DNA of 64,000 nt from Raillietiella orientalis (Eukaryota). The position numbers and the translations under genes are program-made. The notes beneath the pieces were generated by a model. That model saw nothing but the letters and a program-made list of their open reading frames with translations. It did no database searches and was not told where the DNA came from. Each line of letters opens with the position of its first letter. The first letter of the stretch is position 1. Below are positions 837 through 45,970 of this stretch, piece after piece. The stretch is taken from NCBI GenBank assembly GCA_036172245.1, contig JAYWIR010000011.1:2108001-2172000 (forward strand), in the 5' to 3' direction.

Positions 837-2979
837 CTGGGGATGTTCCTGCCCACCTTCGCCGCGGTCACCTGGATCAGGAAGAATGTCTTCCCGCTGT
901 GCCTCTGTCCGGCTCGGAAGGCTCTGCGGCCTCCGTCCGACCTCTTCCCGTGACTGTCGCTGTTTCCCGGATGACAAGGTCGCCGAGGACCCGTGCGCTC
1001 AAGCATGCCCGTCTCCCTCTCCCCCGTCCCCCCGGTCGGTGGCACTGCTATTTCGTGGACGTGCAGACACATACATGCAATCCTGGTGTGGCAAGCGATC
1101 AGGAGATAGCCAAGCGAGGCAGATGGAGAACGACAGCCGCGCTCCACTGACAATTTGCAAGGAGCAGAGGAGTGGCGGGGAAGGGAGGAACCTTCCCCCC
1201 CCCCCCCAGGAAGGCCTCGGTCAGCCACGTCCCATCCCAGGGTGTTCCTCGAATCGGCTCGCTCCATGGATTCCATGGCGCGAGCCGATTCGACATGGCA
1301 ACGAAGGGGGAGACGGAGAGGGATCCCCCAAGGTTGCGGGTGTGTGACTTATCAACCCCGGCTTCCCCTCCATCCCGCCCTTCCTGCCCTTTCCCCATTC
1401 CACGGCGAGGCAGCGTGCGGCGCCGCGGTAGGGCCGCGGTCCGAAAGAAGAGGCAGGCTTTTGTTCACCCGCGCCCAGAGCCGTCCAGTGTTCTCCCGGT
1501 CAGAACGAAAGATCACCGGACCAGGGACAAGGAAAGCCTCACCATATGCTCGCGAGCCAGCGGGCAGGCTGCCTGCACGCTCGCGGCATCGTTGGGTATG
1601 CATCGAGCCGGCCTCGATCTGTGGGCGAGTCAAGATAAGGGAGGGAAGGAGGAGCTGTCAGTCTGTAACCACCGCGCACCTTCGGTCAGTACCGGCGCCT
1701 TCCGCTGCCCTCCCCCCCTTCCCAAAGGACCGACGAGAGCTCCGGGAAGAAAGATGCGGCAAAGGAAGACGGGCAAGCCCCGCGGACTGGTTCTCTTCTT
1801 GTCCACTAGAGGGGAGCAGGAGCCGGTTCCAGTGTTGTATGGCGGTGGGCTAGTCGGTGGGTCCCGAGAAACGTCATGGAATCCTGCGGGAGCAGCGAGA
1901 CCCTTCGCACGCACGAGGTGCGTGCAGAAGACGGTGACGTCACAACACACGCTACGATCGGGGCGCGCGTCGGACACCTCTTTGGTCACCGGGTCATCGG
2001 TCAGGCGGTGCTTCTTCATCCATGGTTGTATTTACAGATGATGCCCTGCGTGTGGGGTTGGGGGGAGAGGAGGTCACGACCCATGACCAGGAAGTGCTCC
2101 ACTATCTTCTCTACCTTGCTGGAGGAGGGAGAGAAGGAGGTCACGACCTATAACCAGAGCATTCATGACCATCTTTTCCATCTGGCTGATTTCCTGCTGC
2201 GTCCGAGGCTGCAAGGGTTGTTCATCTCGACCGATGTGGGCCAGCAAGGAGAGGGATGGGATGGGAGGGATCGCTGGGGCGAAAGGGGTGAGACGCATCT
2301 CCCCCGGAGCGGGGGTGTATGCGGGAGCTCGCCCTTTCCTACCCGGCGCTCTCTACCGATCCCTCGGCGAGGGAGGAGGGTTCCTCGGGCACCCGAGCAT
2401 CCAGAAACGCCCTGGAGGGTGCTGTGGTGCTCTCTCGCTGGCAGCCGATCCCTCTCCACCTGCTTTGCTCCCTTCGTCCCGCCAGCGGCTTCAGCAGGAT
2501 AAGGGAGAGGGAAGAGGGACTTGCAGGGACGTCCAGTATTTCTGCTCTCCAGCCACCGACTACGGGGTCTTGGTCAGAGGGCGAAGGTGGGGAAAGGGGC
2601 AACCGATCCCGCGCGCGGAGATATCCCCCTGATCGTCGGTCATCGTAACACGGTGGCGAATGGATCGTCCAGCACACGAACTGACGACGCAATCGGCGCG
2701 TGGTCGTCAGGTCACGTGCCGGACGGGAGGCGTCCGCAGAAGACGCGCGGCAAGGAGTCTCGGGGTGGTACGGAGGGCGGCATCACCAGCGGCGCGTCCT
2801 CTCGACGCATCCGGAATAGTTTTCAACTAGCAATAATCGCGCCTCCCTTAAGTTCAGCGGAGGCGATACTGCCCGTGAGCAAGGTCTGCCTCATCCGGGG
2901 TGAGACGGGACGAGGACCGATTTCCCTCCCCCCCCTCCTCCTTTCCTCTCCTCCTCTTTTTCTTTCTTTCTCCTTTCAG

Positions 2980-3176: not shown

Positions 3177-6100
3177 GTAAGAGCGACAGTCCCCTCTTCC
3201 CGACACCCCTCTCTTTCCCCTACCCCTTCCCTCCTTCACCTGCTGCTGCCTCGGAAAGCAGGCGGGAGAGGGGAAGATCCGTTCGTCTGGGAGAACGGGC
3301 CGGGCCACAGCTTCTTCCTCCCAGAGGCGTCGCCATGGAGACGGCGGAGGGGAGGCGCGTTCCCTGCCACAGGGACATTGTCCGTCATCACCACCGTTAG
3401 GCGGGTACCGCACCTTCTCGCTCGCGCGAAGACAAACCCTCGAACCCGGCGGACGGCCGCTCGCAGAGCACATGCTAACCAAATGCGGGCAAACCTTCAA
3501 AGCGCGCAGGCAACGCCCGTTTCCTAGGCGGCTCGAAAAAAGCACGTGATCCCGAGTTGTTGTTGTTTTGGCTTTCCTTTCTTTCCTTTTTTCTTGTTAC
3601 TTTCCACTGGGACTTTGGACAAACTGAATCCCGAAAGATCCGAGATGCTGAAGCAGCATGGAGATCCCCGTCTCGAAAAGAAGCGCGTCTGGGCTTTGGG
3701 AGATTGTTCCTTTCGTGCTTCCTGACTGGCAGGAAAAGGTCGTTCCGTTCCGAAAGCACGTGACCAGAAGTAGCATATCCACGGCGTCGACCGTAGCCAC
3801 ACTCCCGCTTTGTCAGTAGTATGGCTGCCGTCTCCGCGTGCGGCACCGGGCGTCACGTGGGTTCGAATCCCGCCCAGCTTTGATATCGAGAACATGGGGT
3901 GCATCGTGTGGGTTTCGAGTGCCCCCGCAGGATGGCGCTGGTTGGCCTATTCGGGTGTGGCACTGGTTGATACCTGGTCACGCCGGCGCGTGTATTTATA
4001 GAAAATAAACACACACGTCTGTGGCAGGGCGGTTGCTCCTGTCACGTGACTTATGAATACGAGGAGGAACCTGCCGGGAGATGGCATGCAGGTCAGCGGG
4101 GTTCGCATCTGCAGCACAGAGTAAGGGGAGACAATCAAAAAGGACAAGAAAAAAAATACAGTCAAAAAAATGGGTAAGAGAGGGGGTTCGGTAAGGGATC
4201 ACTGAGCGCTGGACGGCGTCCCCTGCATCCCCGTAAGGACGCCGGCAAGTTCCTGTTTCAAGACTCCCAGATGAGGCCATCTTGACGCTATCCTCACGAA
4301 GACGACAGCAAAATAGATGGCGTCCCTCTCGTCCTGACCTCCTCTGGCGTTGCTGCTCCATGCAGCCACGGTCCCGCCGCGTGGTCAGCAAAGTGCTACC
4401 GGGGATGCGGCCGGCGTGAGGGCGTCGCACAGGAAAAGGACCTTCAAAACGTCTCTGGCGTTGCCTCCAGGGGTTCCTAGGGTCGCGGCAAAGTGTTCTT
4501 AGAGGGGCCGGAGGGCAACGCAGTCCACTAGGAGGTGCGAGAGGGATTCCCGCTCTCTGCACCTTGCATAGTTCGTGTCCACCCCTGCCCCTTGTGTCCA
4601 GTGATGCCGGGAGGCGTTGCACTGGAGGCCCCAGTAAAGCAGCATCAGCGCCGACTCCTGCCACTTTAAAGGGATGGTGCGGGTGTTCCTGAGCACCAAA
4701 GGCCACTGTGGGTCTTCCTCCGGAATACCCGGTAGCACGTCCCAGAGAAAAAGTCCTCGTGGTGCGCCACTGGGGATCGCGGCGCCCGTAAGCTGGTCCG
4801 TCGTTTACTCGCCCAGTCGTTTCCTTTTTCTGGAGGTTTCCACAGTAACCTCCCATCTAGCCGTAAGGCGGCTGTCCGAGTGTTCCCTAAGGGAGGGCAG
4901 CACGGCGGCGACGGAGGTTCTGCTTGCCCACGCACTCTTTACGGGATCTTCCAGAATCTCCCGAAGCGTGCAGTTGTTGTTGCGTGCATACGGGTAACGT
5001 CGCACCCGTTCCACGCTTGGCTCCTGGATCCTCGACCTGCAGCACTGGTGGAGTCTGGAAACCCCCGGATGTCCCCGCGGGCTGGCTGGGATCGGAAGCT
5101 GAGCCTCCGAGGTCCCTTCCGGAAATCGAGGAACCTTCGGGTTCCCTCTGGTTCTAAAAATGGAAGTCCAGAGTCCATCTCGTTACCAAGGAGCTAGTGG
5201 ATAGGATAACTCCCCAGAGTGCAAGGACTTCAGGGAGGGAAAGCAAGGAGCGGCTCTCTTGAGGGTTGCCTATGGAGAAGAAAATGAGTGACACCACCGG
5301 GGTTCCCTTCGGGGTTCCCTCTCAAGTGTGAGAGGAATGGACTGCTTTCTCCGGAGCCCTTCCTGGATTCATAGGATGGTCCCCTCCAGGGGTGACCTCC
5401 TAACTTGAAGAGTCATACGCACCCCTGGGTGGCGTGGGCAGTGCTGAAGAGCTTCCTGAGTCCCCAGTCGAACGGTTGTTGAGTACTTGACGCCGGATGT
5501 TGATCCACAGCGAGTGCCACGCTCTTTGCGATCGTCGAACTGTCGCTCTCCCCCGTGCGAAGGGCACGCTGAAGCGGCTCGGAAGAAACACCGCTAATTC
5601 CCGTCCCTTCTGGTTCGGTAGCATTACGCAAACGGCTGTGATCCCCCTCCCTCCCCCCCTAAAAAAAAAAGGGGAGGGGAGGAGAGGGGGAGAAATGAAA
5701 GAAGGAACGGAAACGCGTGGGCTCCCCGCGACTGAGGAACAGCGGCGCGCTTCGCCTCTTCTCCCCGCCGCCAGAGGATCGGAGAGCGTTTCCAGGAGAC
5801 CGCCGAGCGGGAACGTCAGGCCGAACAGGCGTGGCGCCACTCTGCCACAGGCGCGGCGGCCGCCGGTCCAGAAAGGAACGCATTCTCCTGTTGGACGACC
5901 AGACGACTCCGCCCCGGTCCTGCGCGAAATGCAGGATGGTCGAAGAGCCAGGGTCCGCATCCCGCGCGTCGCTAGTCTCGCAGCGGATGGGTGAGCATCC
6001 GGGACTGGCCGGTATGCCGGAAGCGGTCGGCAGCGCATAGCACGACGAGGAGCTTCCTCGCGGAATCTCTCTGCCTGCAAGACCCTGCGTCATACGCTAA

Positions 6101-22245: not shown

Positions 22246-23899
22246 GTAAGCTCGAAGGAAGGGAGCCGCCCTCCCAGGGATACCCGCTCACCCCAGTTTC
22301 CCGGCGCGGGTCGCCGTCCCGCAACTCAGAGGGGTCTCGCCGCTCAGGAGGACGAAGCGATTCGTTTATCCCCGGGAGGATTGGGGTAGAAGGAGAATGT
22401 GGCTACCCGTTGGACTGAGGGGAGGTGACCTTGGGGAGCTTCGATAGAATTGTATTGATCCCAGCGGCAAGCGGCGGTGAAAACGGACCGTGATGCAGCC
22501 AAGGGGACGTGTTTTGGAAGCGCGACGGGCTGCCCTCTCCTCTGTTCTGCTCGCTTGCCCTGTCATAGAGGGGCGGGAGGAAGGGAGTGGAAGAGGGCCG
22601 GACAGCTTCCACCCTGAGGCTTTCTGCACCGGGAAGGGCTGATCTCAGGACTCTCATGCCCTGCGGTGCTCCGCGTCCCCCCTCCATCGCCGGCAACAAG
22701 GGCCCCAGAGCGCTCTCTCTCCTGCAAGGAGCTGGAAAACCTCTTGACCGCGGTCCCACCAGCCAGCAAGAGTTGCCAGCACCTCTTCTGCCTCGACCGA
22801 GCTCCTTACCCTCAGCATCCTTGGCAGGCAGGATCGCTTGCTCATTTGAGGGCAATATTTTGAACTCCTTGACCTGATGCAGATCAGAAGTGCGTCCGTT
22901 TCTCCCTTTTTTCCTCCTCCTCCCCCTTTTTCTTCCCGTTGACCCCCTTGGTATGAGTTCCATGACCCACTCGTTCAGGGATCCTCCTCCCTACCGGTCT
23001 TAGAAGCAGCGGATGCAACGGTGCCATGCCAACGCAAAGTGAAGAGCACGGAACGGCATCGCCGTGTGCGCAAGACACACGAACAGCTTCTCTGACCTGC
23101 TCTCGTTCTGACACTGCCCAGAAGTCACGCGTCCTCCCTCCTGGGTTCTTCCCCCTTCCCTGTTCGGAACTCGAGAGATTCGCGCAAGATGGCACTGCTT
23201 GGAGGAGCCTCGAAGTGGCCATAACCTCAATGGAGTGGCCAGAGTGAGCGGTCGGGTTCCCTGACTCAGCAAGGTCGGGTCGACGCTGAAACCTCCAAGG
23301 GCTCTCATGGCTTTGAGGTGAAGGGTGTCTCGGGGAGGACAGGACAAGCTCGAGGGGAACAAAGGCGCGGCGAACGTCTCCGATGCTCTCCATCCATGGA
23401 CTGTGGGTTGAGTTCCGTCTGCTTGAGAGCGTCGGCTGGGGGTTCCAAAGAGCGGGCCGGTATTTGCACTTGTCACAAGTCCATCGGATCTTCACAGATG
23501 TGTCCGGAACCGGAAGTTCAGCAAATTTCACCAGCACCTCCCCCTAACGAGATAGAGAAAGCGAAAGCACTGAAAGTAACGAAAAAATCCGTTGGAAACC
23601 GCAGTGCCAGAATCTATGAGCTGTTGTTCGCTTGCCAAAAAAGCCGTTCCATGAGAAAAAGAAAAAGTGCCTAGGAGCCTGTATCCAAGGAAAGCAGTAA
23701 TTCGCTTCCGCCGGAAGTGATAGCTGAGGCAACGGTGCTTATTTGGAAAAAAGAGATGGTAAGCGAAATGACCCGAGGAAGCATTCAAAACTTGAAAATC
23801 CTTGCTAGGAAGGAAAAGCAAACCAATGTCTCAACAGCGTTTTGCGGTTGCGGCCGTGCGGCCCAGGAATGCCGACAGCTCTTCAAATAAACGTTGCCC

Positions 23900-24660
23900 T
23901 CGTTGGCGGCCGTACGGCCGCGGTCTCCGCGCATTGTGCCAAGTGTCGGGAGTTCCAATCCCGCCCGGGGAAGGATCGACTCCGGGAATGGGGAGGGGGA
24001 GGAAGTGCGTCTCGTGGGTTTCCGAATTCCTCCCTCAAAGTGACGCTGGTTGACCTCGGTTGGCTTCGGGTGCCGCATCGGTGGAAACCTCGTTGAGTGG
24101 CTGGGATTTGGAAGTTGTCCCTCCGGGGTTCTTCCAGGGACCAAGAGGGGTTCCCCTCCGGTTGTGCAAATGGAACTCCCCAATCCCTAGGGGGGGGGAG
24201 ACCCTCCATCTCGTACCATGGAGCTGGTGGATTGACACCTCTCCACAGCGTGAAGAAACGCTCTGCTCCCTTCGGGGAGCGACCCCTCAAAGAAAATTGG
24301 AAAGCGTTCGTTCGGGGTTCTCTTCAGAGTTCTCTTCGGGCTTCTAAGGAGCGGCCCCTCTGGGGGGATCCCTCCGGAAGGCAAAAGGAAGAGGCTCCCT
24401 CCCAAGCGTGAGAGGAACGGACTCCTCCCTCCGGTGCCTTCCCGGATGCATAGTGCGGTCCCGCCCCCTATGAATTGAAAAGTTGGCATGCACCTCGGGT
24501 GGCTCGAAACAACGTTGAAGAGCTTCGTGAGCCGTCACGGAAACGACGATTCGTGAGGCACTCGTCGATCCCCCCCCCCTTCCCCTAAAAAAAGGAAAAC
24601 CTGAGGAAAAATAAAAAAGCGAAAAGAGAACAGCCAAAGAGAGAAGCATATAAAAGGATT
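23900..24660 (+). mobile_element. Diverged near-full-length copy of the tRNA-headed SINE-like element
   Basis: Degenerate B-box (agttccaatcccgccc); ttcggggttctcttcagag; caagcgtgagaggaacggactcc at 24403, identical to 43117-43139; GCTCCC-TTCG-GGGAGC hairpin at 24265-24280; A-rich 3' end. Confidence 0.8.
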
Positions 24661-25639
24661 CGGAAATAGACGCTAGGTTATGGGAGTGGGGGTGGGTGGG
24701 TGGGAATTGTCTTCTGCTTTAGGCACCGCAAGCAATCAGCGTTGTCGGTCGAAAAACTCCGGAGTTCGGAGGCGAACCTTCCGTGTTGCGTTCGCGCTCT
24801 TTCGCTTGAGGAAAAGAGGCAAGCAGGAACAGGGGTTGCTGACAGACAGCTGCACCAGCTGCCTGCAGGCGTCACAGAGTTGGCCGCTTGTGCTTTCTGT
24901 GCGGCCGAGGACCGTCCATCATATTCCGAACTCAAGTGGGTGCTTCTTTTGAAATGACGTAGACGAAAGGTTTCACCGTCGCAAGGAAAGGGCAAGCGAT
25001 TTCTTCACGGTCCATGAAAATTCCCCGTTTTCACGGGTGCTTTCCATCCGATGGATCGAAACGCCTGAACACCGTGATTTCCTCTCTGGAGATGTGGGAA
25101 GTGAGCAGGAAAGAGTGCGAAGAGAAACAGACTCCTCTTTCTCCTCCTCTTCTTTGCACCCTTACTTGGGTCCTGCGTTTCCTCTTCGCCATTGCTGTTT
25201 CCGACGGCGCCTCTTTGCGACGGTCCGGCGCTACCTGGCAACGGATCGATCCCGCGTCCGGAGAGGAGGAATCGCTTATTTTGCTGACTCATTGCATCGC
25301 TTATAAATCAGACGTATCGACGGCCCACGCTGCGACCCGATCGATTCCTCAATCCGACAGGCGACGGGGCGCGAATCTGTTCAACAACAGATCGCGTGGG
25401 ACTGACACGCTAGCAACCGTTTCCCAACATCGTCGTCCGCAACACCAAGTATCACTTTTGTGGGTCAAGATCCGAGTTTAAGATCCTATCACTAGTTACT
25501 AAGCGCTCGTTCCTTCTACCTGGACAGTGCCTCAGTCGTTTTCAAGCTGCAGCGATGCGTCCAGTTCCTAACGACCATCTCTCTCTGAAGGAGTCCTCTC
25601 AAGATGTCCACCGCGGGCGTCAGCCTTCCTGCCCCCTCC

Positions 25640-26600: not shown

Positions 26601-29600
26601 TTCTTCCATTATCGGGTATTTCCGGGTCGCTGCAGTTCTCCAGTGCACCGAGCCGGACGGTGCAGTCGAGAACATTCGGTGCGCGTTGTGGTTTCAGAGA
26701 CCTCGTTTTCCCTTTCTACATTTGACAACAGGGAATTTTTTGTGTGTGTTTTGCAAATCGTGCCTGGTTCAAAGTTCGTAGTAGGGTCACTTGTGCTACT
26801 GCAGAGTGAAATGAGATTCTTGCAACAGAGGGAAAGCACCAGATCGTCTTAATCTCTCAACAAGGGATGCATTTTGAGAACTGTTGAAAAGGTAAAGACA
26901 TGCTCCACTCGAAATTCGACCTCATCGGACGGGCCAGACAATGGAGTGAAAGCACAAGAACACTCCAAGCTGTCTCCCTGCGTCCCTTCGCGGAGGCATC
27001 CAAGATGTGTTCGCCAGAAGAAAAATCGAAAAGGATTGTGTACGCAAACATGAACGCAAGTCGTCCCAAGACGCCCTGAGGAAATCAAATAGTGTCCCAA
27101 CCGTTCTGAAGTTCCTGTTTTGCGCCGCTTGTTTTTTCATAGATCATTCTGGCAACAGGCACTCCTGTTGTCCATTCCAGTGGAGTGAACTTTAGATGCT
27201 CACTCTTTTGCATTCAAGAAATCGAAGCGGAAATCAGGAAGTCCTCTAGAGAGGTCGACATTTGCCTGCAGAAAGATGGAATACTGCTAAAATAGGCTGG
27301 AAATGAGGCGTCGAGCAAGCAAGCGTGGTCACCCATCGAGTCATCATTGAGGCCTGACTCGTCCTGAAAAAACAAAAACCCTCACCACACTCTATGCGTG
27401 TTGTCCATTTTAAAACACTCCGGTAGTGTTTCAGAAGGCGCGCGAAATGAAGAGGAAAACATACGGAAACAAATTGCTTTGGCATTTTAAGAATGACGGT
27501 GACATGCAGCAACTGAAATCTCAAGAACTGCGCGAACAAGTTGATGCTGAAGTCTGACATCTAGCATAGCCGAGACACTTATTGGGTGCACCGGCTAGGA
27601 CGGCCCTCCAAGCAGCCGAGCGCGGACCTGCCTGGGCAGGTCACCCGAAGTCCACCAATCTTCAGGTCTCTTAAAGCCGAAAAGCAAAGAAAGAAGGCTT
27701 GGACCAACAACGACTTCAGTGCCGAGAGATGGGCTGCGGATTCGAACCGCTGAGGTGAACCTACCCGACAAGGCCCTCATCCTCATTGAGGAACACCTCT
27801 CCCCCACACTCTCTTGAGCAGCTGTTGCAGACCAGACCTTTCCCAGCAACGACGAAGCTGTTCACCTTGACTAACGCGTGCAAGCTGTGGAAAATCCCTT
27901 CCCATACATTTCTCTACGTGATTCATGTAATCCCGAATCTTTTACATAGTTCTTTCCAAGCCGAAAGAGAAAGTTCCCGTATGAACAAACTCTGAATGGT
28001 TGCAACGCGATCTCTGTGCTAGCAGGAGATCAAGTTTACTAGGACAGAGATCTTTTTTTATAGAAAATACACGTGAATCTCTTGTTGCTTGCCCAAGAAA
28101 CCGCTTCAAGAGGACGTAGGGTATAGGTTTAATTACTTGTTGAATGTAAGGCAGTTCATCTGGCTGAAGGCCACTTCAAGCGGTTGGCTACGCAGTCGGA
28201 TACGTCAATGAGGCTTTTTCTTCGGGGACAATCCAAAAATAACACGAAGCAGAGGAAACACGCCAATTTTCTTCAAACGTTTTTGAGGAGCTTAAGCGTT
28301 GATGGCTTCGTTGAATGCATTCTTTGCTCTTCTCTTTCTCCTTCCGGAGTTCCAAGTAGGATTCCTAAAAGTGGCCGAAAGGCTTTCATTCGTATGGTGT
28401 GATGTTCGCTTAAAATAAGGGTGGTCCTTGGCAAAGTCTGGTGGACGCGTCGGGACACACTTTTCGCATGACACCGGTCATCCTGGAAATTTCATCCAGA
28501 TCGATGTGCCCACACTTGACCAGCTACCGACGGGAAACCGCGAGCCGTCGACACTGGGTTACCAGAGCTACGTCCACAGACGCTGATTGAGGCTCATTTG
28601 AAGGTCATTTCTTAGGACAAGAGGGAACTTGCACGAAGTATTTCATCCTTTTCTCTTCGAAGAGTAATAGGGAACAAGATTCCACTTTTACTTGCCTTCT
28701 TGCTAGGCTCGCAGGCAGCAAAAATAAGGGAATAACACGAAAAAACAAATGGAGCTTCCCGGAGTGAATTGCTTGCTTGCCAGTTCCTACGTCGTTCGTC
28801 CGACGCGCGAGAAGCATTTTGTTCTCATGAGAAGCAACTCGGATCGGGAAGTCCCCCATTCTCTTCGTCAGGCCGTACGGTGAAGCGCGTTGAAGAATCG
28901 AATCCCTGCTCAACGCGTTCCTCTCCTCTGCACTGGTGAGCATCGTGGGATAAAGCCAGCTGGTCCACGGTTCTGCATGCTCGAGCGCCACCTGAGCTTC
29001 CGCAAGTCGGAGCTGCTGCTTGGCACAGGGAGATGTGGAAAGTGTTCCCTTCCTTCTCTGTGTTTTTGCATTCGAGAAGGTGGCCGAGGACGGGTTCCCT
29101 GCCCTGTCCAGGCATCGCCTGCTGGAAACCCCTCGCTCGCTCGAGTGGGCATTTCCGGATGCACGCAAACGCCGGAAGCCTTCATGGAGGCGATAGAGCT
29201 CTTGCGCCCTCCAATTTCTTCCCGGAAAGATAAAATTCTTGCTGCCTTTATCCGCTCACTTGGCGGTTGATTTTTCAAATTCACCGATTCGGCCTCGAAT
29301 CCGCTTGACGCCAAAGCTCCATGTGAACGAACGCGTACTGTCACGTGTGGGCACTGTGCAGTTTGATGCCTTCCTCGCCCATAAAACTGGGCATGCAGGG
29401 TGAACCCCGCTTGATTTAAAAGAAAAAAACAAAAGGATCTCATGTGGAACGTTCATGGCAACATTCCACATGAGATCAGGTGGCCAAAGAGGAGATTTCC
29501 AAGCTCTCAGCACGAAGACAACGAGGGGGAAAGGATGGGGGGGGGGGGGCTGAATTCTCCTGAATCTTCCTGAAACGTTGAATTCCTTTGGAGGCTCGGT

Positions 29601-38600: not shown

Positions 38601-39919
38601 CACAATTATGAAAACAGCATTAGATTTTTGCATATAGCATATTGTATTCATTGTTCACAAACATAACTATAATTAGATCTCAAAAGTAAAAAGACAAAAC
38701 TTCATTTTTCAAATAATCGTGAAATTGCATAACGGTAACTTTCATATCTATATTATTAATTTTTCGCATTCATTATATTTCACTTAACGCCTTGCAAGCC
38801 CACTTTACTCTCGCATACACCACAGCATATTATGACAAGTAATGCATAAAGCAAGAAGATAAACATTAGAAGTTGAAACCTATTCTTTATTTTTATGAAA
38901 GAAATGCGGATAATTCCCGGGATGAATAGAATCTCTTAAATCAATGAAATGCCGATAATTATGAAGACTGCTCACCAACTGAGTGTAATTTATCAACGGT
39001 AATTTACTGATAATGGCTACCATCATCACACATCACACATTTCAGACATCTACTAGCTTGATGTTAGTAATGTTTCTCTTATGCCATACTTAATATCCAT
39101 AATTCCATTTCTGGAGTAGAATTTTAAAAAAATTTTCTCATGAAAAAAATGTCAACATCAGTCACACAGAGAATTACGTACTCGAGTAATGAATCGATTG
39201 TGTGGTACATTATTTGGAAGTTTTTTTTTTTATTATTATCAATGCGGGATTAACATTGTCTAATCTTATAAGATTCAAATTCAAATCATGTTTTATTTTA
39301 TTTTATCATATATTAAAGTGTCTCAGTTTTTCTTTTAGAAACTCTAAATAAAATCAGACAAAAAGTCAGCCTACTAAGAAACTTCTATCAGAAAAGAATA
39401 ACCGCAAAATATTTATCAAATATCTTATAAACTGAAATCACAAAATCACATGAAATGCCATGGAACCAACAAAATAAGAAACAGAAGAATAAAAGAAAAC
39501 TGACAAAAGTAGACCTTCCTCCTCCTTCAATAACACCGCCGTATAGTGGCGCGACCGAAGAAGAGGAATAACAGGCAATGGAACTAGAAATGAAAGCAGC
39601 TACATCCGCTGCAGCGATCCATCTGGACAACACTCTTCTTCCTTGCCACCAGCAACTCGTCGAGACGATTCTGTGGAACCACCATCCGCCGCATCGACGA
39701 CAAGAGCAGGCTGGAGCATATGATCCACGTGCTCTGCAATCTGCATTTCGAAAGCAGGAAGATGAGGCAGGAAGCGTACTGGGAGCTGAACATCGAAGAT
39801 GAGGATGAACATCGTTCCCTCTGAGGGTACTGGGAACCAGTACGAGTGGTAGTACGCATCCCGCAACGTAAAAGGGCAGATCGGTATGCAAGAAAAGAAA
39901 AACATCGCCACCGCTGTCT

Positions 39920-41020
39920 TTGCAACAGAATTCGGACAGGAATTTCGGCACACGCCGGAAGGGATTACGGAGACGCTCCAAGACCGTTACATCACGTCAA
40001 GATCTGTGCCCGATAGAACAGCAGGTCACCCTGCAACGCCCGACGAAAAAACTTTCATACACATACAAAGAGGAATTGGGCATGGACATTTACTACGAGA
40101 GAGTCAAGAAGACGTTCATAGAACTGCTCAGAGACGTGATGGCAGGTGCCCATAGTGTTCCCATCTCGCACTATCAAAGATACCAGCACGCCTACCTGCG
40201 TCTGTTCCACGAATTGACTATCAGTATTCAAGAAGAAAAGCTTCCGGAGTCGTTTGACCAGAGTAGGATGCGGCTGCTGCCAAAAAGTGGCGATCTCAAA
40301 AAAGTCACTCAGTGGAGGCCCATCTCCATCTCGAATACGGATGCCAGACATCTGGCATCCGTATTCGGATGGCCTGAAGGTCCGGCCGTCATTGCTTTCT
40401 GTTACGCAGACATGCGCCGCGCCTGGACGACGCATGTCTGACAGCGTGAAGTGCACCCAGGCCACGATCGGCAACATCCGGTGCGTTGGTGGCATCCTGG
40501 TAATGGCATCCACAGACATAAGAGCACCATTCGACATTGTGGACTACAGGATATTGCTACGAATCCTGGAGAAGATGAACTTTCCACAGTACTTCCTGGA
40601 GTACATGCGAATGACCCTCAAAATTCCAATAAACAGACATGAGACGGCACAACCAGGACAGAAAAATGAATCCTTCAAGGAGTATGTGGGAGCTGTAGCT
40701 GTGTCGGTGATCGTTGACCTAAAAGTCAGCCTCCAAGGACTGACAATGGGAAACAACAATCTGACCCATCTAGCATATGCAGACGACCTTCTCTTCTTTC
40801 CTGACAGACAAAAAGGATCAGCACGCTTCCTTTCTGAAAGACGCATTTCCGGAAGTGCTCAATCAGGGGAAAAAAAGAACTGGGCCTGAAAATCAACGAC
40901 CAGAAGCTGCTTATCAGAATCCTGGATCACCCCACTAAAGTAAGAAAGCTTCCGAGTGGTAGATGAAGTCAAATACCTGGAAATCCCCATCGGAGGAACC
41001 TCGGCCTCGCAAACGTTGTG
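39920..41020 (+). mobile_element. Degenerate L1/Tx1-like reverse transcriptase pseudogene
   Basis: LPESFDQSRMRLLPKSGDLKKVTQWRPISISNTD; DIRAPFDIVDY..L..ILEKMNF; LAYADDLL; GLKIN; EVKYLEIPIG, spread over several frames. Confidence 0.85.
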
Positions 41021-41081
41021 AATGGATAATAAATCAGGGATAAGCTTGTTTTTTTTGTAAATGTAAAATGATAACGACAGA

Positions 41082-41405
41082 TTATGGACACGTTTTAGCT
41101 ACACCAAAATTCGTACCAAATAGTTAGACAGTGATATCGATGCTCCAAATGGTTAAGATGAGCCACACTGATGCATATATTCCCTGTGGCAGGTTATATG
41201 GGCATATCGATGAAGCATTTAGTAGTCCAATCAATAATACGATTCTATTCCCCTGAGTTAGGTTATACCATTCAAAAGGAAATAAAACTCCTATAGAAAA
41301 AATTAGTAGGTAAAACGACAAATCACGGAAGTATGTAACAAAAGCGAACATAAGCAGCATTACTATTGAAGGCAGTATTCTAATGACAAGATGACTATCT
41401 GCCAT
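41082..41405 (-). pseudogene. cdsA: Phosphatidate cytidylyltransferase, 5' part (Wolbachia-like)
   Basis: MADSHLVIRILPSIV...FEWYNLTQGN...LTIWSIDITV*LFGTNFGVAKTCP*; start overlaps the uppS stop; 3' half missing. Confidence 0.85.
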
Positions 41406-42020
41406 ATCCTTTGTCTCTTTTTGCATAATCTTCTAGTGCTTTACCCAAATCTTGACAAGAAGAATCAGACCACAAAGTATCGCAAAAATACAATTCAGCG
41501 CAGGCATAGAACTCAGCGCAGGCTGATTGCCATAACGGTGGAAAAAGGTCACTTTACCTTTTTCCACCCGTTATTGCGAAAATCCTAGTTTAGCAAATCT
41601 TTAGTTTACAGAAATTTTTCAAATTCCTCTTCTGATACACGAGCAATATTTCCTTTCATAATAGTGCTTACAGCATGTGTAATTCCTTGTTTCGCTCCGT
41701 AGCTGACCGTCACAGTAAGTATGAAATCGTTCTCAACTTGATGCTGTAATTGCACATGAAATTGATTCTACCGTCGTTAGTTCGTACATAGTAAAATAAA
41801 TCAAATAGATAGTTGGTTTCTTCTTTAGTCTAAGCCCATTCTCCATGGCAAATTCGTATAAAGTCGAGTACGGTGTGGCTAGAGCTGTGCAATGCTTAGC
41901 AATATCGAGTATGCAACCTCACTGCCCTTTCCATAACCATCAAGTTTTATCCTCCCTTGGTTGTTTGTCCACCGACCACTGTTATGCATAATGATTGCCA
42001 AGTGCTTTTGGTAATTTGCT
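41395..42020 (-). pseudogene. uppS: Undecaprenyl diphosphate synthase (Wolbachia-like)
   Basis: HLAIIMHNSGRW; VSYGAKQGI; SEEEFEKFL*TKDL; AELYFCDTLWSD...EDYAKRDKGYGR*; stops, frameshifts and an internal deletion near 41735. Confidence 0.9.
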
Positions 42021-42026
42021 TACCCT

Positions 42027-43671
42027 TCAGTGATTCAGTATATCCTTTTCCTTAGTGGATAATCCACTGTGAATCTTTTTGATATTGCCACCAGTAATAT
42101 TCTGTATTTTCTTCTTAGTACTATGAAAGTTATCTTCTGAGATTTCTTACCTCCCTGCATTTTTTCTATTTCTTCCATAACATCTCTACGTCTGTTTCTA
42201 ATGGCAACGCGCGCATTTTCAGCAAACCGGTGCCATCATTTCATTAATCTTTCACTTTCACGGGCTTCTTGCGTTAGATCTTGAAGAGTTTCACGTGTAG
42301 TGCTACCCTCGATAACAGGATTTAAATTTGAGTTAGCATTCAGCATAGCACTTTTTGCTTCATCTATGACGCATCCTCCGCCCGCGTCGGAAGCTTTGTG
42401 GTTAAGGCATCCGCGTGTGGCACCATGAGTCGCGGGTTCGAATACTCCGGCAGAAACTGACGCCACTGCGTCGTTGGGTTCCGAGTCCCTCCTGCAAGAT
42501 GGCACTGGTTGGCCGAGACATTCGGGATTGGCACGGTGGTCGTTTAAGTCGGAGGCCCCCGATGAAGACCGGAACAATGGGAGTCGACCTTCGACCTTCG
42601 GGTCCTTCCAGGAATCAAGGAGTGGGGAATTCCCCCTCCGGTCGTACAACGGAGAGAGGACCCCCCACACCGGGGGTACCCTTCCGGTTGGTTTCAACAT
42701 GGAGCAGAGACCTCACGGGCACCTCTCCTAGTTGTTCAGATGGAGCGGACCTCCCTTGTTGCTGGGGTGCCTCCGAGTCGTCGCCTCTTCACAGAGTGCA
42801 CAAGGAAGCAAGCGAGAGCGATTCCCTGCGGAAAGCTGCAGCGCCCCTTCTGAATTTCGGAAGCGTCCCTTCGGGGTTCTCTTCAGAGGAGTGAACAGGA
42901 GCGGTTCCCTTGCGGGTTCCCTTTGGAGAAGAAATTCCTACAAGCGGATCCTTTCCGGATTCCCTTCGGAGAAGTTGAAATGACAGCCCCCCTCCCCATT
43001 GGAAGGGGAAGGTGTCCCTCCGGAGAGAATGAGGAAGGAGATTCCCTTCGGGGTTCCCCTTCGGAGACAACCAGGGTAGGAGGTGCGATCTCCCCCATCC
43101 GGGGAGGATTCCTCCCCAAGCGTGAGAGGAACGGACTCCGAGCCCTTCCTGGATTCATAGGGCGGATCCACCCCTATCCCGGGGTGCCCCCTATCCTGAA
43201 GAATTACATGCTCCCCTGTGGATTGTCGCAGGAGAGAGGCGTGGAAACAGAACTGTGTTTGAAGAGCCAGTGCGCCGCGAGGCACGCGACCGGCTCTTGA
43301 GGCACACTTAGCGAACCAAAAAAAAGTAAACCCGAAGAAAACAAACAAACAAAAAAAAAAAAAACAGCGAAGACATGGCAGAAAAAGAATTTTCCAAGGA
43401 TTTTCCATCATCCAATAGTAAAGATCTCATCGCGGGGTCGCTACTGGCCTTTTAAATAAATATAAAAGATAAAAAAAAATGATACGTCCCAAACTTTAAT
43501 TAACGAGGTACTGAAACAATTTTTGATGCCCGCCATAGATACTCACAATTCTGCCATCAAGTAATGATGGCATGAACTCTGCCGGTGCGTGTACTTTAAT
43601 ATCATCATGGAAAGATACTGAATAGTTTTTAGCATCCTTTCCTTTGTTTTTGTTTTCACTCCATTCAACAT
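42027..43671 (-). pseudogene. frr: Ribosome recycling factor (Wolbachia-like), split by a 1.1 kb host element
   Basis: 5' half 43671-43480: MLNGVKTKTKERMLKTIQ...IKVWDVS; 3' half 42370-42027: VIDEAKSAMLNANSNLNPVIEGST...FAENARVAIRNRRRD...KEKDILNH*. Confidence 0.92.
42371..43479 (+). mobile_element. Long tRNA-headed non-coding SINE-like element with cUUCGg hairpins and A-rich tail
   Basis: A-box-like aagctttgtgg; tRNA-His-like ccgcgtgtggc; B-box ggttcgaatac at 42435-42445; CTTCGG at 42596, 42869, 42964, 43046 and 43059; ends aaataaatataaaagataaaaaaaaa; both ends are defined by the two frr halves. Confidence 0.85.
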
Positions 43672-43681
43672 AAATTACCTA

Positions 43682-44403
43682 TCATTCATAATCGGAAACT
43701 GCAGTGTAAGTACCACAGCCCTTAACGACGTTGATCATTTCGCCTTCTTTCAGAGGAAGAACTTGAATTGGAACGGAATTCTCACGCGCAAGTGGGATCG
43801 CTGATGCATCCATAACTTTTCAATCACGAGTCAGCAAATCCATGGAAGAAAGCTTATCGTACATTACAGCATCCACAATTTTATTTTTCGGATCGGCGGA
43901 GTATACACCGTGTACTTGGGTACCTTTTAAAATCACGGTTCCTTTCAGCAGCAAGTACAGCTGCAGCCTTATCTGTAGTAATTACCTGCACCTGCCGCAA
44001 AGATCACTACTCTTCCTCTTTATAAATGACGAACGGCTTTTCTCCTTATACAAGGCTCGCGTGTAGTGGCCATGGGTATTGCAGACAGCACTCTAGAGTC
44101 TACTAAATTTTTCTCTGCAAGTTTTTGTAAAATCAAAGCGCTGGTTACAGTGGCAAGCATTCCAATATAATCACTTCTTGCTCTTCCACAACCACTTGAC
44201 GATGCAGATGCACCACGAAAGATATTGCCGCCACCACCAGCAACGCGTATCTGAAGTTCGAGCTTGTGGACATCAGCTACATCTTTGCACAGTTGATCTG
44301 TGACCTACACATCATGACCGTAAGGCCGTGATCCAATCGAAACCTCGCCAGAGATTCCAAATAACACTCTGGAGTATTTTACTTTAGCTGCTGAGGCAGT
44401 CAT
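43682..44403 (-). pseudogene. pyrH: Uridylate kinase (Wolbachia-like)
   Basis: MTASAAKVKYSRVLFGISGE...GGGGNIFRGASA...SDYIGMLAT...[22 protein letters not shown]...[15 protein letters not shown]...GTYTAVSDYE*; internal stops and frameshifts. Confidence 0.95.
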
Positions 44404-44413
44404 TTTCAACTAC

Positions 44414-44628
44414 TTAATCTCTGATACCTAAAACAAGCGACATATAATCAGGCAATTGAACACCAGAGCTTAAATTTTATTAGCTTCAACCCTTATAAAA
44501 TTCTGTTCTAATAAAGCAACTCCTTCATAATATTTAGGCCATTCGACTATCTACTGTTTTTTTTTTTTTGTGTGTCGCTTCAGGTTTATGTAATCTTTTC
44601 ATTTGTTCTTCAACTATAGAGCGTTCAG
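44414..44628 (-). pseudogene. tsf: Elongation factor Ts, 3' fragment (Wolbachia-like)
   Basis: ERSIVEEQMKRLHKPE...KYYEGVALLEQNFI...LVLGIRD*, directly upstream of pyrH as in the conserved operon. Confidence 0.85.
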
Positions 44629-45109: not shown

Positions 45110-45970
45110 GAACCAACCTTGTTTCAAACAGAGTGCCCATGTGCTCCGTTTGCCTTAGGAATTCACGAAAAATCCTATTCCTTTGGCCGTCGCTCGCATT
45201 TTTCATCGAAGACTGCGTTCTTTCTTTTAGACCAAAAACTCATAAAAATTCTCCTCTCCGATTCAAAATCTCGCGATCTACGCTTTTTAATGAATCTCGC
45301 AACTCCGGAAGATTCACAAGAGCAGCAATACCACCATCACCAACATCTTCAAGAAGATTTGCATATTTATGATGCTTTACCGATCGCAGAGTGCTCTTAT
45401 ACGCAGGATATACGTAGACATAATCTATAATAAAAGCGGCTCCTCTATTATTGTAGATCTTCTCAAGTCTTTTCAATATTTCAGTTCCAGCTGGTCGTAC
45501 TTCCACTACTGCACCATCAAAAAGTATTCCATTTGCCATCTGAGTAGCTGATGCTGGAAAACACCATTCCTTTTTTTCCTGGATTCCAGTGTCAAGCACG
45601 GAAGTGACACTGAGAGGCTGCCATTATCCTCTTTTTGTTATTCAATTTTCATGCCACTTTTAATACGATGTGCAAACGGATCCATAGGAAGAGCGTCAAA
45701 AAACTCATTTGCTACTATTTGTATTTTCGTGCCAGTTAATATCTGGACCCTTTAATCTTTCCCTTTGTATCTCCTGTAAAGCAAGTGGATCGACGCTGAA
45801 TCAAAACAGTATTCTATTTTCTAGTCACTCTAATTAAAACGCGAATCAGTGTTCATTCACCAGGCCAAAGTTCAACCACAAAAAATTTTGATGGCTTTCC
45901 GAATTTTTCACATCCATGCATTACCAAAACTCCAATTATTTCACCAACTAAGTGACTGATTACGCGTGCA
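45110..45970 (-). pseudogene. SAM-dependent methyltransferase, MidA/NDUFAF7 family (Wolbachia-like), 5'-truncated
   Basis: SHLVGEIIGV...GKPSKFFVVELWPGE*TL; ANEFFDALP; GAAFIIDYVYVYPAYKSTLRSVKHHKY; IAALVN; HMGTLF. Confidence 0.9.
45536..45610. repeat. Wolbachia palindromic element remnant inside the methyltransferase gene
   Basis: catctgagtagctgatgctggaa ... ctggattccagtgtcaagcacggaagtgacac resembles the recurrent Wolbachia repeat arms (ctggattccagtgtcaagcactggaatgaca, recalled). Confidence 0.75.

Follow-up and report, generated by a model that had tools for sequence, protein, structure and literature searches.

Here, we show that a Wolbachia frr gene, now part of host nuclear DNA, is split between codons 73 and 74 by an insert of 1109 bp. 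The insert has relatives elsewhere in the window, by which we mean the whole 64-kb stretch of DNA that was analyzed. We put at roughly 70% the probability that this insert is a member of a host repeat family, retroposed into the gene after the Wolbachia DNA had been transferred. On this reading, the nuclear genome of an animal host rich in GC would have acquired a Wolbachia segment spanning tsf, pyrH, frr, uppS and cdsA, which then decayed as neutral sequence. At a later time, a non-coding repeat family of the host would have supplied an RNA for reverse transcription, presumably with a LINE enzyme of the host working in trans, and the product would have integrated into frr, antisense to the gene and without any target base being duplicated or lost. 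The template may have been a polyadenylated RNA polymerase II-type transcript, either from a long family member or from read-through of a source copy.

The two halves of the gene and the insert between them are placed as follows.

43480..43671, minus strand: 5′ half of the frr pseudogene, codons 1–73 of a 185-codon Wolbachia-type RRF (tblastn and MAFFT)
42371–43479, plus strand, opposite to frr: the insert, 1109 bp, with bounds from the ungapped frr alignment
42027..42370, minus strand: 3′ half of the frr pseudogene, codons 74–185 and the stop codon (phmmer, tblastn and MAFFT)

The start ATG lies at 43671 and the stop TGA at 42027–42029, both on the minus strand; the last base of codon 73 is 43480, and the first of codon 74 is 42370. 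We used 26 RRF proteins as tblastn queries against the window and examined the rows for five of them. The alignment started at residue 74, which is base 42370, in four of these five, and residues 1–73 were aligned with their end at base 43480 in three. Query P0007 instead aligned from residue 65 (42406), 36 nt inside the insert. Matches of the 5′ half to Wolbachia RRF had E values from 1e-4 to 3e-11. The frame shifts along the gene: residues 1–18 fall at 43671–43618, residues 19–53 at 43615–43511 in a different frame, and the final 39 residues in a third frame, at 42146–42030.

For comparison at the DNA level we used two metagenome contigs, found by a degenerate pattern for a peptide common to RRF proteins. 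One of them, L088, holds a partial frr plus pyrH; the other, L089, holds tsf-pyrH-frr-uppS-cdsA. When the two halves were aligned by MAFFT with frr of both contigs, uninterrupted in L089 and partial in L088, no gap column appeared at or near the joint; against L089, the joined halves matched in 417 columns, mismatched in 110 and were gapped in 40. Excision of 42371–43479 thus rejoins frr in frame, as a sequence-only reading of this DNA had claimed, and the joined halves are colinear with a single frr by both tblastn and MAFFT. The same reading gave the peptide across the joint as W-D-V-S/V-I-D-E-A-K (the slash marks the joint), and this is indeed what the DNA encodes; Wolbachia proteins have W-D-I-S/V-I-G-E-V-K. 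The protein position at the right joint varies among Wolbachia, with DIS, DIG, DAT, DVS and NIA seen in the tblastn rows. Five of the six bases adjoining the right joint (43480–43485) are unlike L088. Given these mismatches, the bases there could also be aligned with two 2-nt indels, and the right end of the insert is fixed to ~2 nt. With the ungapped alignment, the ends of the element are therefore defined to within a few bases, again as proposed. No direct repeat flanking the insert was found in a repeat search, and the ungapped joint implies zero target-site duplication and zero loss of target bases, in agreement with the earlier remark that no clear duplication is visible.

The interrupted gene is of Wolbachia origin. 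A protein-collection search with the 3′ half, its TGA entered as X, yielded 28 candidates, of which 26 had E ≤ 1e-3. All 26 are RRF (17 named Wolbachia, four named 'Rickettsiales bacterium' and five without an organism name), and they are 54–71% identical to the 3′ half over 63–97% of the query. In the PDB, phmmer matched the 3′ half to 18 distinct RRF sequences (E ≤ 0.01), with alignments beginning near residue 79. Pfam RRF (PF01765) fragments of the 3′ half scored 22.9 and 16.5 bits, under the cut-off of 29.7. The 5′ half alone had no PDB match at E ≤ 1, and a 44-residue piece of frr gave 12 candidates among proteins, none of them significant. DNA identity of the window is 81% and 79.5% to L088 and 75–79% to L089; positions 43517–44627 are 81% identical to L088 by blastn. 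Remnants of four further genes flank the split frr.

44626–44426, minus strand: tsf, C-terminal fragment, upstream of frr (tblastn with proteins translated from L089)
44466–43691, minus strand: pyrH pseudogene, upstream of frr, the Wolbachia arrangement (tblastn, protein queries translated from L089)
42007–41398, minus strand: uppS pseudogene, downstream of frr as in Wolbachia (tblastn)
41432–41085, minus strand: cdsA, first 121 codons, downstream of frr as in Wolbachia (tblastn)

The gene order tsf-pyrH-frr-uppS-cdsA around the split frr is that of L089. This order, together with the Wolbachia names among the RRF matches, upholds the identification of the gene as Wolbachia frr. The interruption is absent from both of the Wolbachia-like frr contigs, and likewise from the 23 full-length (182–185 aa) RRF proteins among the 26 matched. 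Occurrence of the insert in Wolbachia genomes would have told against the sequence-only reading; its absence holds for the two Wolbachia-like contigs and the protein records, which are what the searches covered. In a class-level sample of 401 genomes, the best matches to the window reached 73% identity for DNA and 48% for RRF, and order-level searches over 3, 6, 3, 27, 18 and 22 genomes returned nothing at E ≤ 1e-20. A locus search with a pyrH fragment was set aside: it matched a universal motif, with at least 80 unrelated loci at 47–57% identity.

The frr copy is a dead nuclear pseudogene that has decayed neutrally. Six indels and one in-frame TGA distinguish it from L089 in the MAFFT alignment.

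5′ half: +2 nt at 43617, −1 at 43595, +1 at 43570 and −29 at 43511
3′ half: +6 nt at 42261, −1 at 42147, and the in-frame TGA

Divergence was sampled over pyrH and that part of frr covered by both L088 and L089, at the 947 sites where these references agree. The nuclear copy differs at 135 of them (~14%). These lineage-specific changes are spread evenly over the codon positions (41/45/49; chi-square p = 0.70); the differences between L088 and L089 are distributed 27/20/72 (p = 2e-9). By direction, 100 of the lineage-specific changes are AT to GC, 23 are GC to AT and 12 are of other kinds, and the GC content of the nuclear copy is 41%, compared with 34.5–36% in the references. Both the evenness over codon positions and the AT-to-GC bias are predicted by long neutral residence in a GC-rich nucleus.

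The base composition of the window is a mosaic. Positions 1–33 kb have 48–69% GC, and AT-rich blocks of 31–43% GC lie at ~34–39, 41–46, 49–52 and 62–64 kb, with GC-richer stretches between them. Two eukaryotic-type features were recognized.

2805–2886, minus strand: U4 snRNA, within the GC-rich part (51.7 bits, gathering score 46)
~39.5–41.0 kb, in a GC-richer block: reverse-transcriptase fragment (RVT_1 E 3.5e-4, under the Pfam cut-off; LAYADD in the translation)

Both are on one contig with the nuclear frr copy, as are the relatives of the insert. Among longer proteins of the protein collection, none of the 863 candidates for the reverse-transcriptase ORF was significant, and a protein-cluster look-up led to reverse-transcriptase clusters with uninformative taxa. 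This fragment has no detectable sequence in common with the insert. The region 48.9–54.3 kb had no match in a phage collection.

The insert comprises a GC-rich body (42371–43317, 59.5% GC) and an AT-rich tail (43318–43479, 162 nt, 30% GC), with the following parts.

42379..42540, plus strand: 5′ head, common to the copies at 3802 and 23895 (nhmmer and four-way alignment)
42435–42443, plus strand: GGTTCGAAT, within the 5′ head
42860..43068, plus strand: four degenerate 32-nt units (..TTCCCTTCGGGGTTCCC..), inside the body (repeat search)
43318..43364, plus strand: internal A-rich tract, A8...A14, shared with the 24.6-kb copy and, judged by eye, with that at 5.66 kb
43390, 43401 and 43450, plus strand: T4 runs, upstream of the 3′ end of the insert
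43455–43460, plus strand: AATAAA, 10 nt before the terminal A run
43471–43479, plus strand: terminal A9, the 3′ end of the insert

The insert is without coding capacity; none of its ten ORFs (70–162 aa) matched Pfam at E ≤ 0.01. It had no match in phage and plasmid collections either.

Used as an nhmmer query against the window, the insert gave four matches, all on the plus strand, colinear with the insert and in GC-rich DNA.

3794..3985, plus strand: head fragment with GGGTTCGAATCCC (nhmmer 3802–3965, insert 9–166, 21.1 bits, E 6.3e-7)
5072..5451, plus strand: body fragment (nhmmer 5092–5429, insert 487–850, 59.2 bits, E 1.8e-18)
23888..24657, plus strand, first part (nhmmer 23895–24379, insert 9–558, 52.1 bits, E 2.5e-16)
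23888..24657, plus strand, second part (nhmmer 24392–24636, insert 735–1000, 40.4 bits, E 9.2e-13)

In 21 control searches, the reversed insert scored 2.5 bits at best and the 20 block-shuffled inserts 9.0 bits at best. The family that had been reported at ~3.8, ~5.0 and ~23.9 kb is thus real (21–59 bits, against at most 9 in the controls), and its copies within the window align only patchily. In both nhmmer and the four-way alignment, two of the other copies (3802 and 23895) begin at insert position 9. This common start favors a unit with a defined 5′ end over randomly truncated LINE tails. A possible 9-nt duplication, 8 of 9 alike, was seen by eye around the 23.9-kb copy (23885–23893 and 24664–24672). 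We give it no weight, since by a rough estimate ~0.4 such matches are expected by chance.

Part of the stretch is contained in a single public sequencing run (X1, share 0.13); no RNA run was listed. On most of the listed sites in the insert body, this run has 3–9 different contigs that are 85–95% alike; on every listed flank site it has one. Among the flank contigs, one is identical over 151 nt, and others differ by 2.5% substitutions, or by ~7% with gaps included. Several contigs skip 50–223 nt within the repeat-unit region of the body. The multiple contigs fit a repeated family whose members differ in how many internal units they have; the count of contigs is not a copy number. Depth in this run is low, and flank-like, over 43278–43545, a hint that the last ~200 nt may be unrepeated; the region was partly skipped as repeat, and we set this hint aside. 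Among the records listed for the run, no contig bridges either junction or skips 42371–43479. The junctions are thus those of this assembly alone, and the run is silent on empty-site alleles.

Several lines of evidence point to retroposition of a host repeat. The insert splits a nuclear copy of frr, and its relatives lie in non-bacterial, GC-rich parts of the window. From this follow both the chromosomal integration of the Wolbachia DNA and the order of events that had been proposed, transfer first and element second. As is typical of a LINE-dependent retroposon, the insert is non-coding, belongs to a dispersed multi-copy family and ends in poly(A), but it has no target-site duplication. LINE-type integration usually leaves such a duplication. 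Its absence here is unusual for that kind of integration, yet compatible with it and no ground for excluding it. Other points against retroposition are the terminal A run, which is only 9 long, and the search for a partner LINE in the window, where the sole reverse-transcriptase fragment showed no likeness to the insert. The placement of AATAAA 10 nt before A9, together with the three T4 runs in the last 90 nt, favors a polymerase II-type over a polymerase III template. The term 'retroelement' in the sequence-only reading is an interpretation, based on AATAAA plus A9, the common 5′ start and the lack of coding capacity; the insert belongs to no family that the tools recognize. We infer from these features that insertion was RNA-mediated, from a transcript of this kind and by use of a LINE enzyme. 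More tentatively, and with a good deal less confidence, we suggest that the copies may represent an undescribed, ~1.1-kb, non-coding retroposon family, one that is AATAAA-polyadenylated, contains a variable number of ~32–40-nt units and can integrate without target duplication or loss.

Could the insert instead be a classical tRNA-derived SINE, transcribed by polymerase III from A and B boxes in its 5′ head and mobilized by a partner LINE? Like such SINEs, it is non-coding and dispersed, with a common, defined 5′ start and an A-rich 3′ region, and its head contains the nonamer GGTTCGAAT, which we take to be B-box-like. This nonamer is at homologous positions in two of the three heads. It occurs three times in the window where 0.73 are expected, and 2 of 100 shuffles reach three. 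The occurrence at 27740, on the minus strand, does not align with the repeat family. As for the A box, none in the heads is convincing by eye. ARAGORN at default settings found no tRNA in the window, and an Rfam search of the three heads produced no tRNA hit at E ≤ 10. Relaxed ARAGORN (-ps70) does call two of the three heads, but the same setting is positive in 52 of 214 background host pieces and in 212 of 600 shuffles; calls that are as frequent in background pieces and shuffles carry no weight. Moreover, no cloverleaf emerges from the consensus fold of the three heads, and the insert differs from tRNA-derived SINEs in its lack of a recognized tRNA-like fold, in its length of 1.1 kb (the unit is 1109 bp), in its three T4 runs ahead of the end, in its AATAAA-directed end and in the missing target duplication. 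We therefore consider this identity unlikely.

The main rival to retroposition is capture during repair. In that case, a family copy, on a piece of host DNA or as free cDNA, would have been end-joined into a double-strand break in frr, with no target-primed reverse transcription. A target with zero duplication and zero loss is what this process would leave, and five of six bases at the right junction are unlike L088. The ends of the insert, however, are not those of a random fragment: the 3′ end lies at the expected poly(A) site, 10 nt past AATAAA and with an A run, and the 5′ end is within ~9 nt of the start of two other copies. Because both ends coincide with features of the unit, which is unexpected for a random fragment, we disfavor repair capture and hold it slightly less probable again than a tRNA-derived SINE. 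LINE-type insertions that are independent of endonuclease occur at DNA breaks, often without a poly(A) end and with target deletions. The insert resembles these in having no target-site duplication, but differs from them in that it has a tail and left the target complete.

Retroposition of a polymerase II-type transcript finds a descriptive parallel in elements of the SVA/L1 type. Composite, non-autonomous retroposons transcribed by polymerase II are known from this group, and LINE-dependent elements can carry 3′ transductions. Here, similarly, an internal A-rich tract is followed by more sequence and then by AATAAA and poly(A), a likeness by description only, and copies differ in how many internal repeat units they carry. 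Unlike SVA/L1-type elements, the insert has no target duplication.

Two further explanations have little in their favor. An assembly chimera, or an element already present in the donor bacterium, would be in keeping with the lack of an independent bridging contig among the X1 records listed, but we regard both as very improbable. After a misjoin, frr would not pick up again exactly where it left off. An element of bacterial origin is hard to reconcile with an insert body of 59.5% GC against 34–36% in the Wolbachia-like contigs, with relatives in GC-rich non-bacterial DNA, with phage and plasmid collections in which nothing matched, and with the uninterrupted frr of two out of two Wolbachia-like contigs. 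A cut-and-paste transposon with terminal inverted repeats, a Helitron or a solo LTR is barely conceivable: Helitrons leave no target-site duplication, as seen here, but they have TC...CTRR ends and an A/T target, and LTRs have TG...CA ends with a duplication, whereas the insert reads GC...AA at its ends, lies at a C/T target, ends in poly(A) and has no terminal inverted repeat, the nearest inverted pair in the repeat search being internal and 71% complementary.

Interruption of nuclear Wolbachia DNA by host elements is a known phenomenon. Passages of Klasson et al. (PMC4299567) describe host retrotransposons inserted in nuclear Wolbachia DNA of Drosophila ananassae, and a passage of Choi et al. 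(PMC4558871) mentions insertions of the same kind in this species, crediting them to Dunning Hotopp et al. 2007. As far as those passages go, the case of D. ananassae is like the present one in that a host retroelement lies within transferred Wolbachia DNA, which proves chromosomal residence and orders the events. It differs in the kind of element, the D. ananassae insertions being LTR retrotransposons of the Pao family according to the same passages, and the element here a non-coding one with poly(A). The D. ananassae insertions reportedly sit in a young, near-intact transfer. The copy described here, in contrast, is old, ~14% diverged and ameliorated in GC, with an empty site that is exact to the base. 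A retrotransposon reportedly also interrupts a nuclear Wolbachia fragment in Callosobruchus chinensis, in work ascribed to Kondo et al. in 2002 and Nikoh et al. in 2008; by that account, transferred Wolbachia genes are interrupted by a retrotransposon there much as frr is here.

The split frr is thus a further example of a known phenomenon. Since host retroelements inside nuclear Wolbachia DNA have already been published, it is of modest interest and leaves current understanding unchanged. What distinguishes this case is that the empty site is exact to the base, that there is no duplication, and that the bacterial DNA is old and its decay GC-biased. The assembled sequence is by itself enough to establish that the Wolbachia-like DNA belongs to a chromosome and does not stem from a contaminating live symbiont, and to order two events, transfer and then element. 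The exact pre-insertion site is recoverable because the interrupted gene is known, which is seldom feasible for old repeat copies. In addition, the flanking pseudogenes provide a neutral measure of host substitution (~14%, with 100 AT-to-GC and 23 GC-to-AT changes), which could be used to calibrate the ages of repeats. Should the insert prove to represent an undescribed retroposon family, it would be an unusually clean case of blunt retroposition in a GC-rich Wolbachia host, and the nuclear copy around it would provide a neutral yardstick for that host's strong AT-to-GC bias.

The Wolbachia-derived block, a run of decayed tsf-pyrH-frr-uppS-cdsA pseudogenes on the minus strand, has the following features at or near its ends:

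45243-45623, minus strand: ORF matching Methyltransf_28 (PF02636; E 1.3e-10)
41085-41432, minus strand: cdsA, residues 1-121, adjoining a reverse transcriptase fragment
~39500-41030, plus strand: that fragment, a second host retroelement fragment (RVT_1, E 3.5e-4, below the Pfam cut-off; YADD motif)

On the tsf side, the alignment is colinear with the Wolbachia-like metagenome contigs only up to 44627, within tsf. This endpoint, together with the Methyltransf_28 ORF, indicates that bacterial DNA upstream of pyrH has been rearranged or deleted. On the cdsA side, the block meets the reverse transcriptase fragment, which has no poly(A) end, where cdsA ends, at residue 121. No match to cdsA beyond this residue turned up in other parts of the window (E<=1e-3), so the bacterial DNA has been deleted or broken at the junction.

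Part of the window is also present in one public sequencing run, with contigs over 41082-42083 and 44006-44156. One contig, 151 nt long and with a depth of 2.3, shows no difference from the window, and contigs covering the uppS/cdsA flank have depths of 5-8. One of these flank contigs differs from the window at 8 letters in ~320, and another at 16 letters plus 12 gap positions in ~380; the differences are mostly A>G and T>C. These contigs may reflect extra, slightly divergent copies of the block in the organism sequenced, or a related strain.

Elsewhere in the window, a head-like piece (3794-3985) and a body-like piece (5072-5451) of the host repeat family to which the insert in frr belongs lie on the same strand, ~1.1 kb apart. 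A further insertion may have divided a single copy, or each piece may be a partial copy in its own right. GC-rich DNA also contains an snRNA-like sequence:

2805-2886, minus strand: U4 spliceosomal snRNA match (51.7 bits versus a gathering score of 46)

Since this match covers just 82 nt of the 138-position model, the U4 copy may be truncated or retroposed. GC-rich blocks (55-70% GC) at 46.3-49 kb and 54-60 kb keep the AT-rich blocks apart. They may be further insertions of host sequence within a single bacterial fragment, or stretches of host DNA that lie between distinct fragments. A search of 48.9-54.3 kb against phage records gave no match.

Finally, substitutions in the pyrH and frr pseudogenes (within 41085-44626) are strongly biased, with 100 AT->GC changes versus 23 in the opposite direction, or 0.16 per AT site versus 0.07 per GC site. 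The GC content of the Wolbachia-derived pseudogenes is 41%, versus 34.5-36% for the Wolbachia-like references. Such pseudogenes might be used to probe mutation or gene-conversion bias in the host with neutrally evolving sequence.
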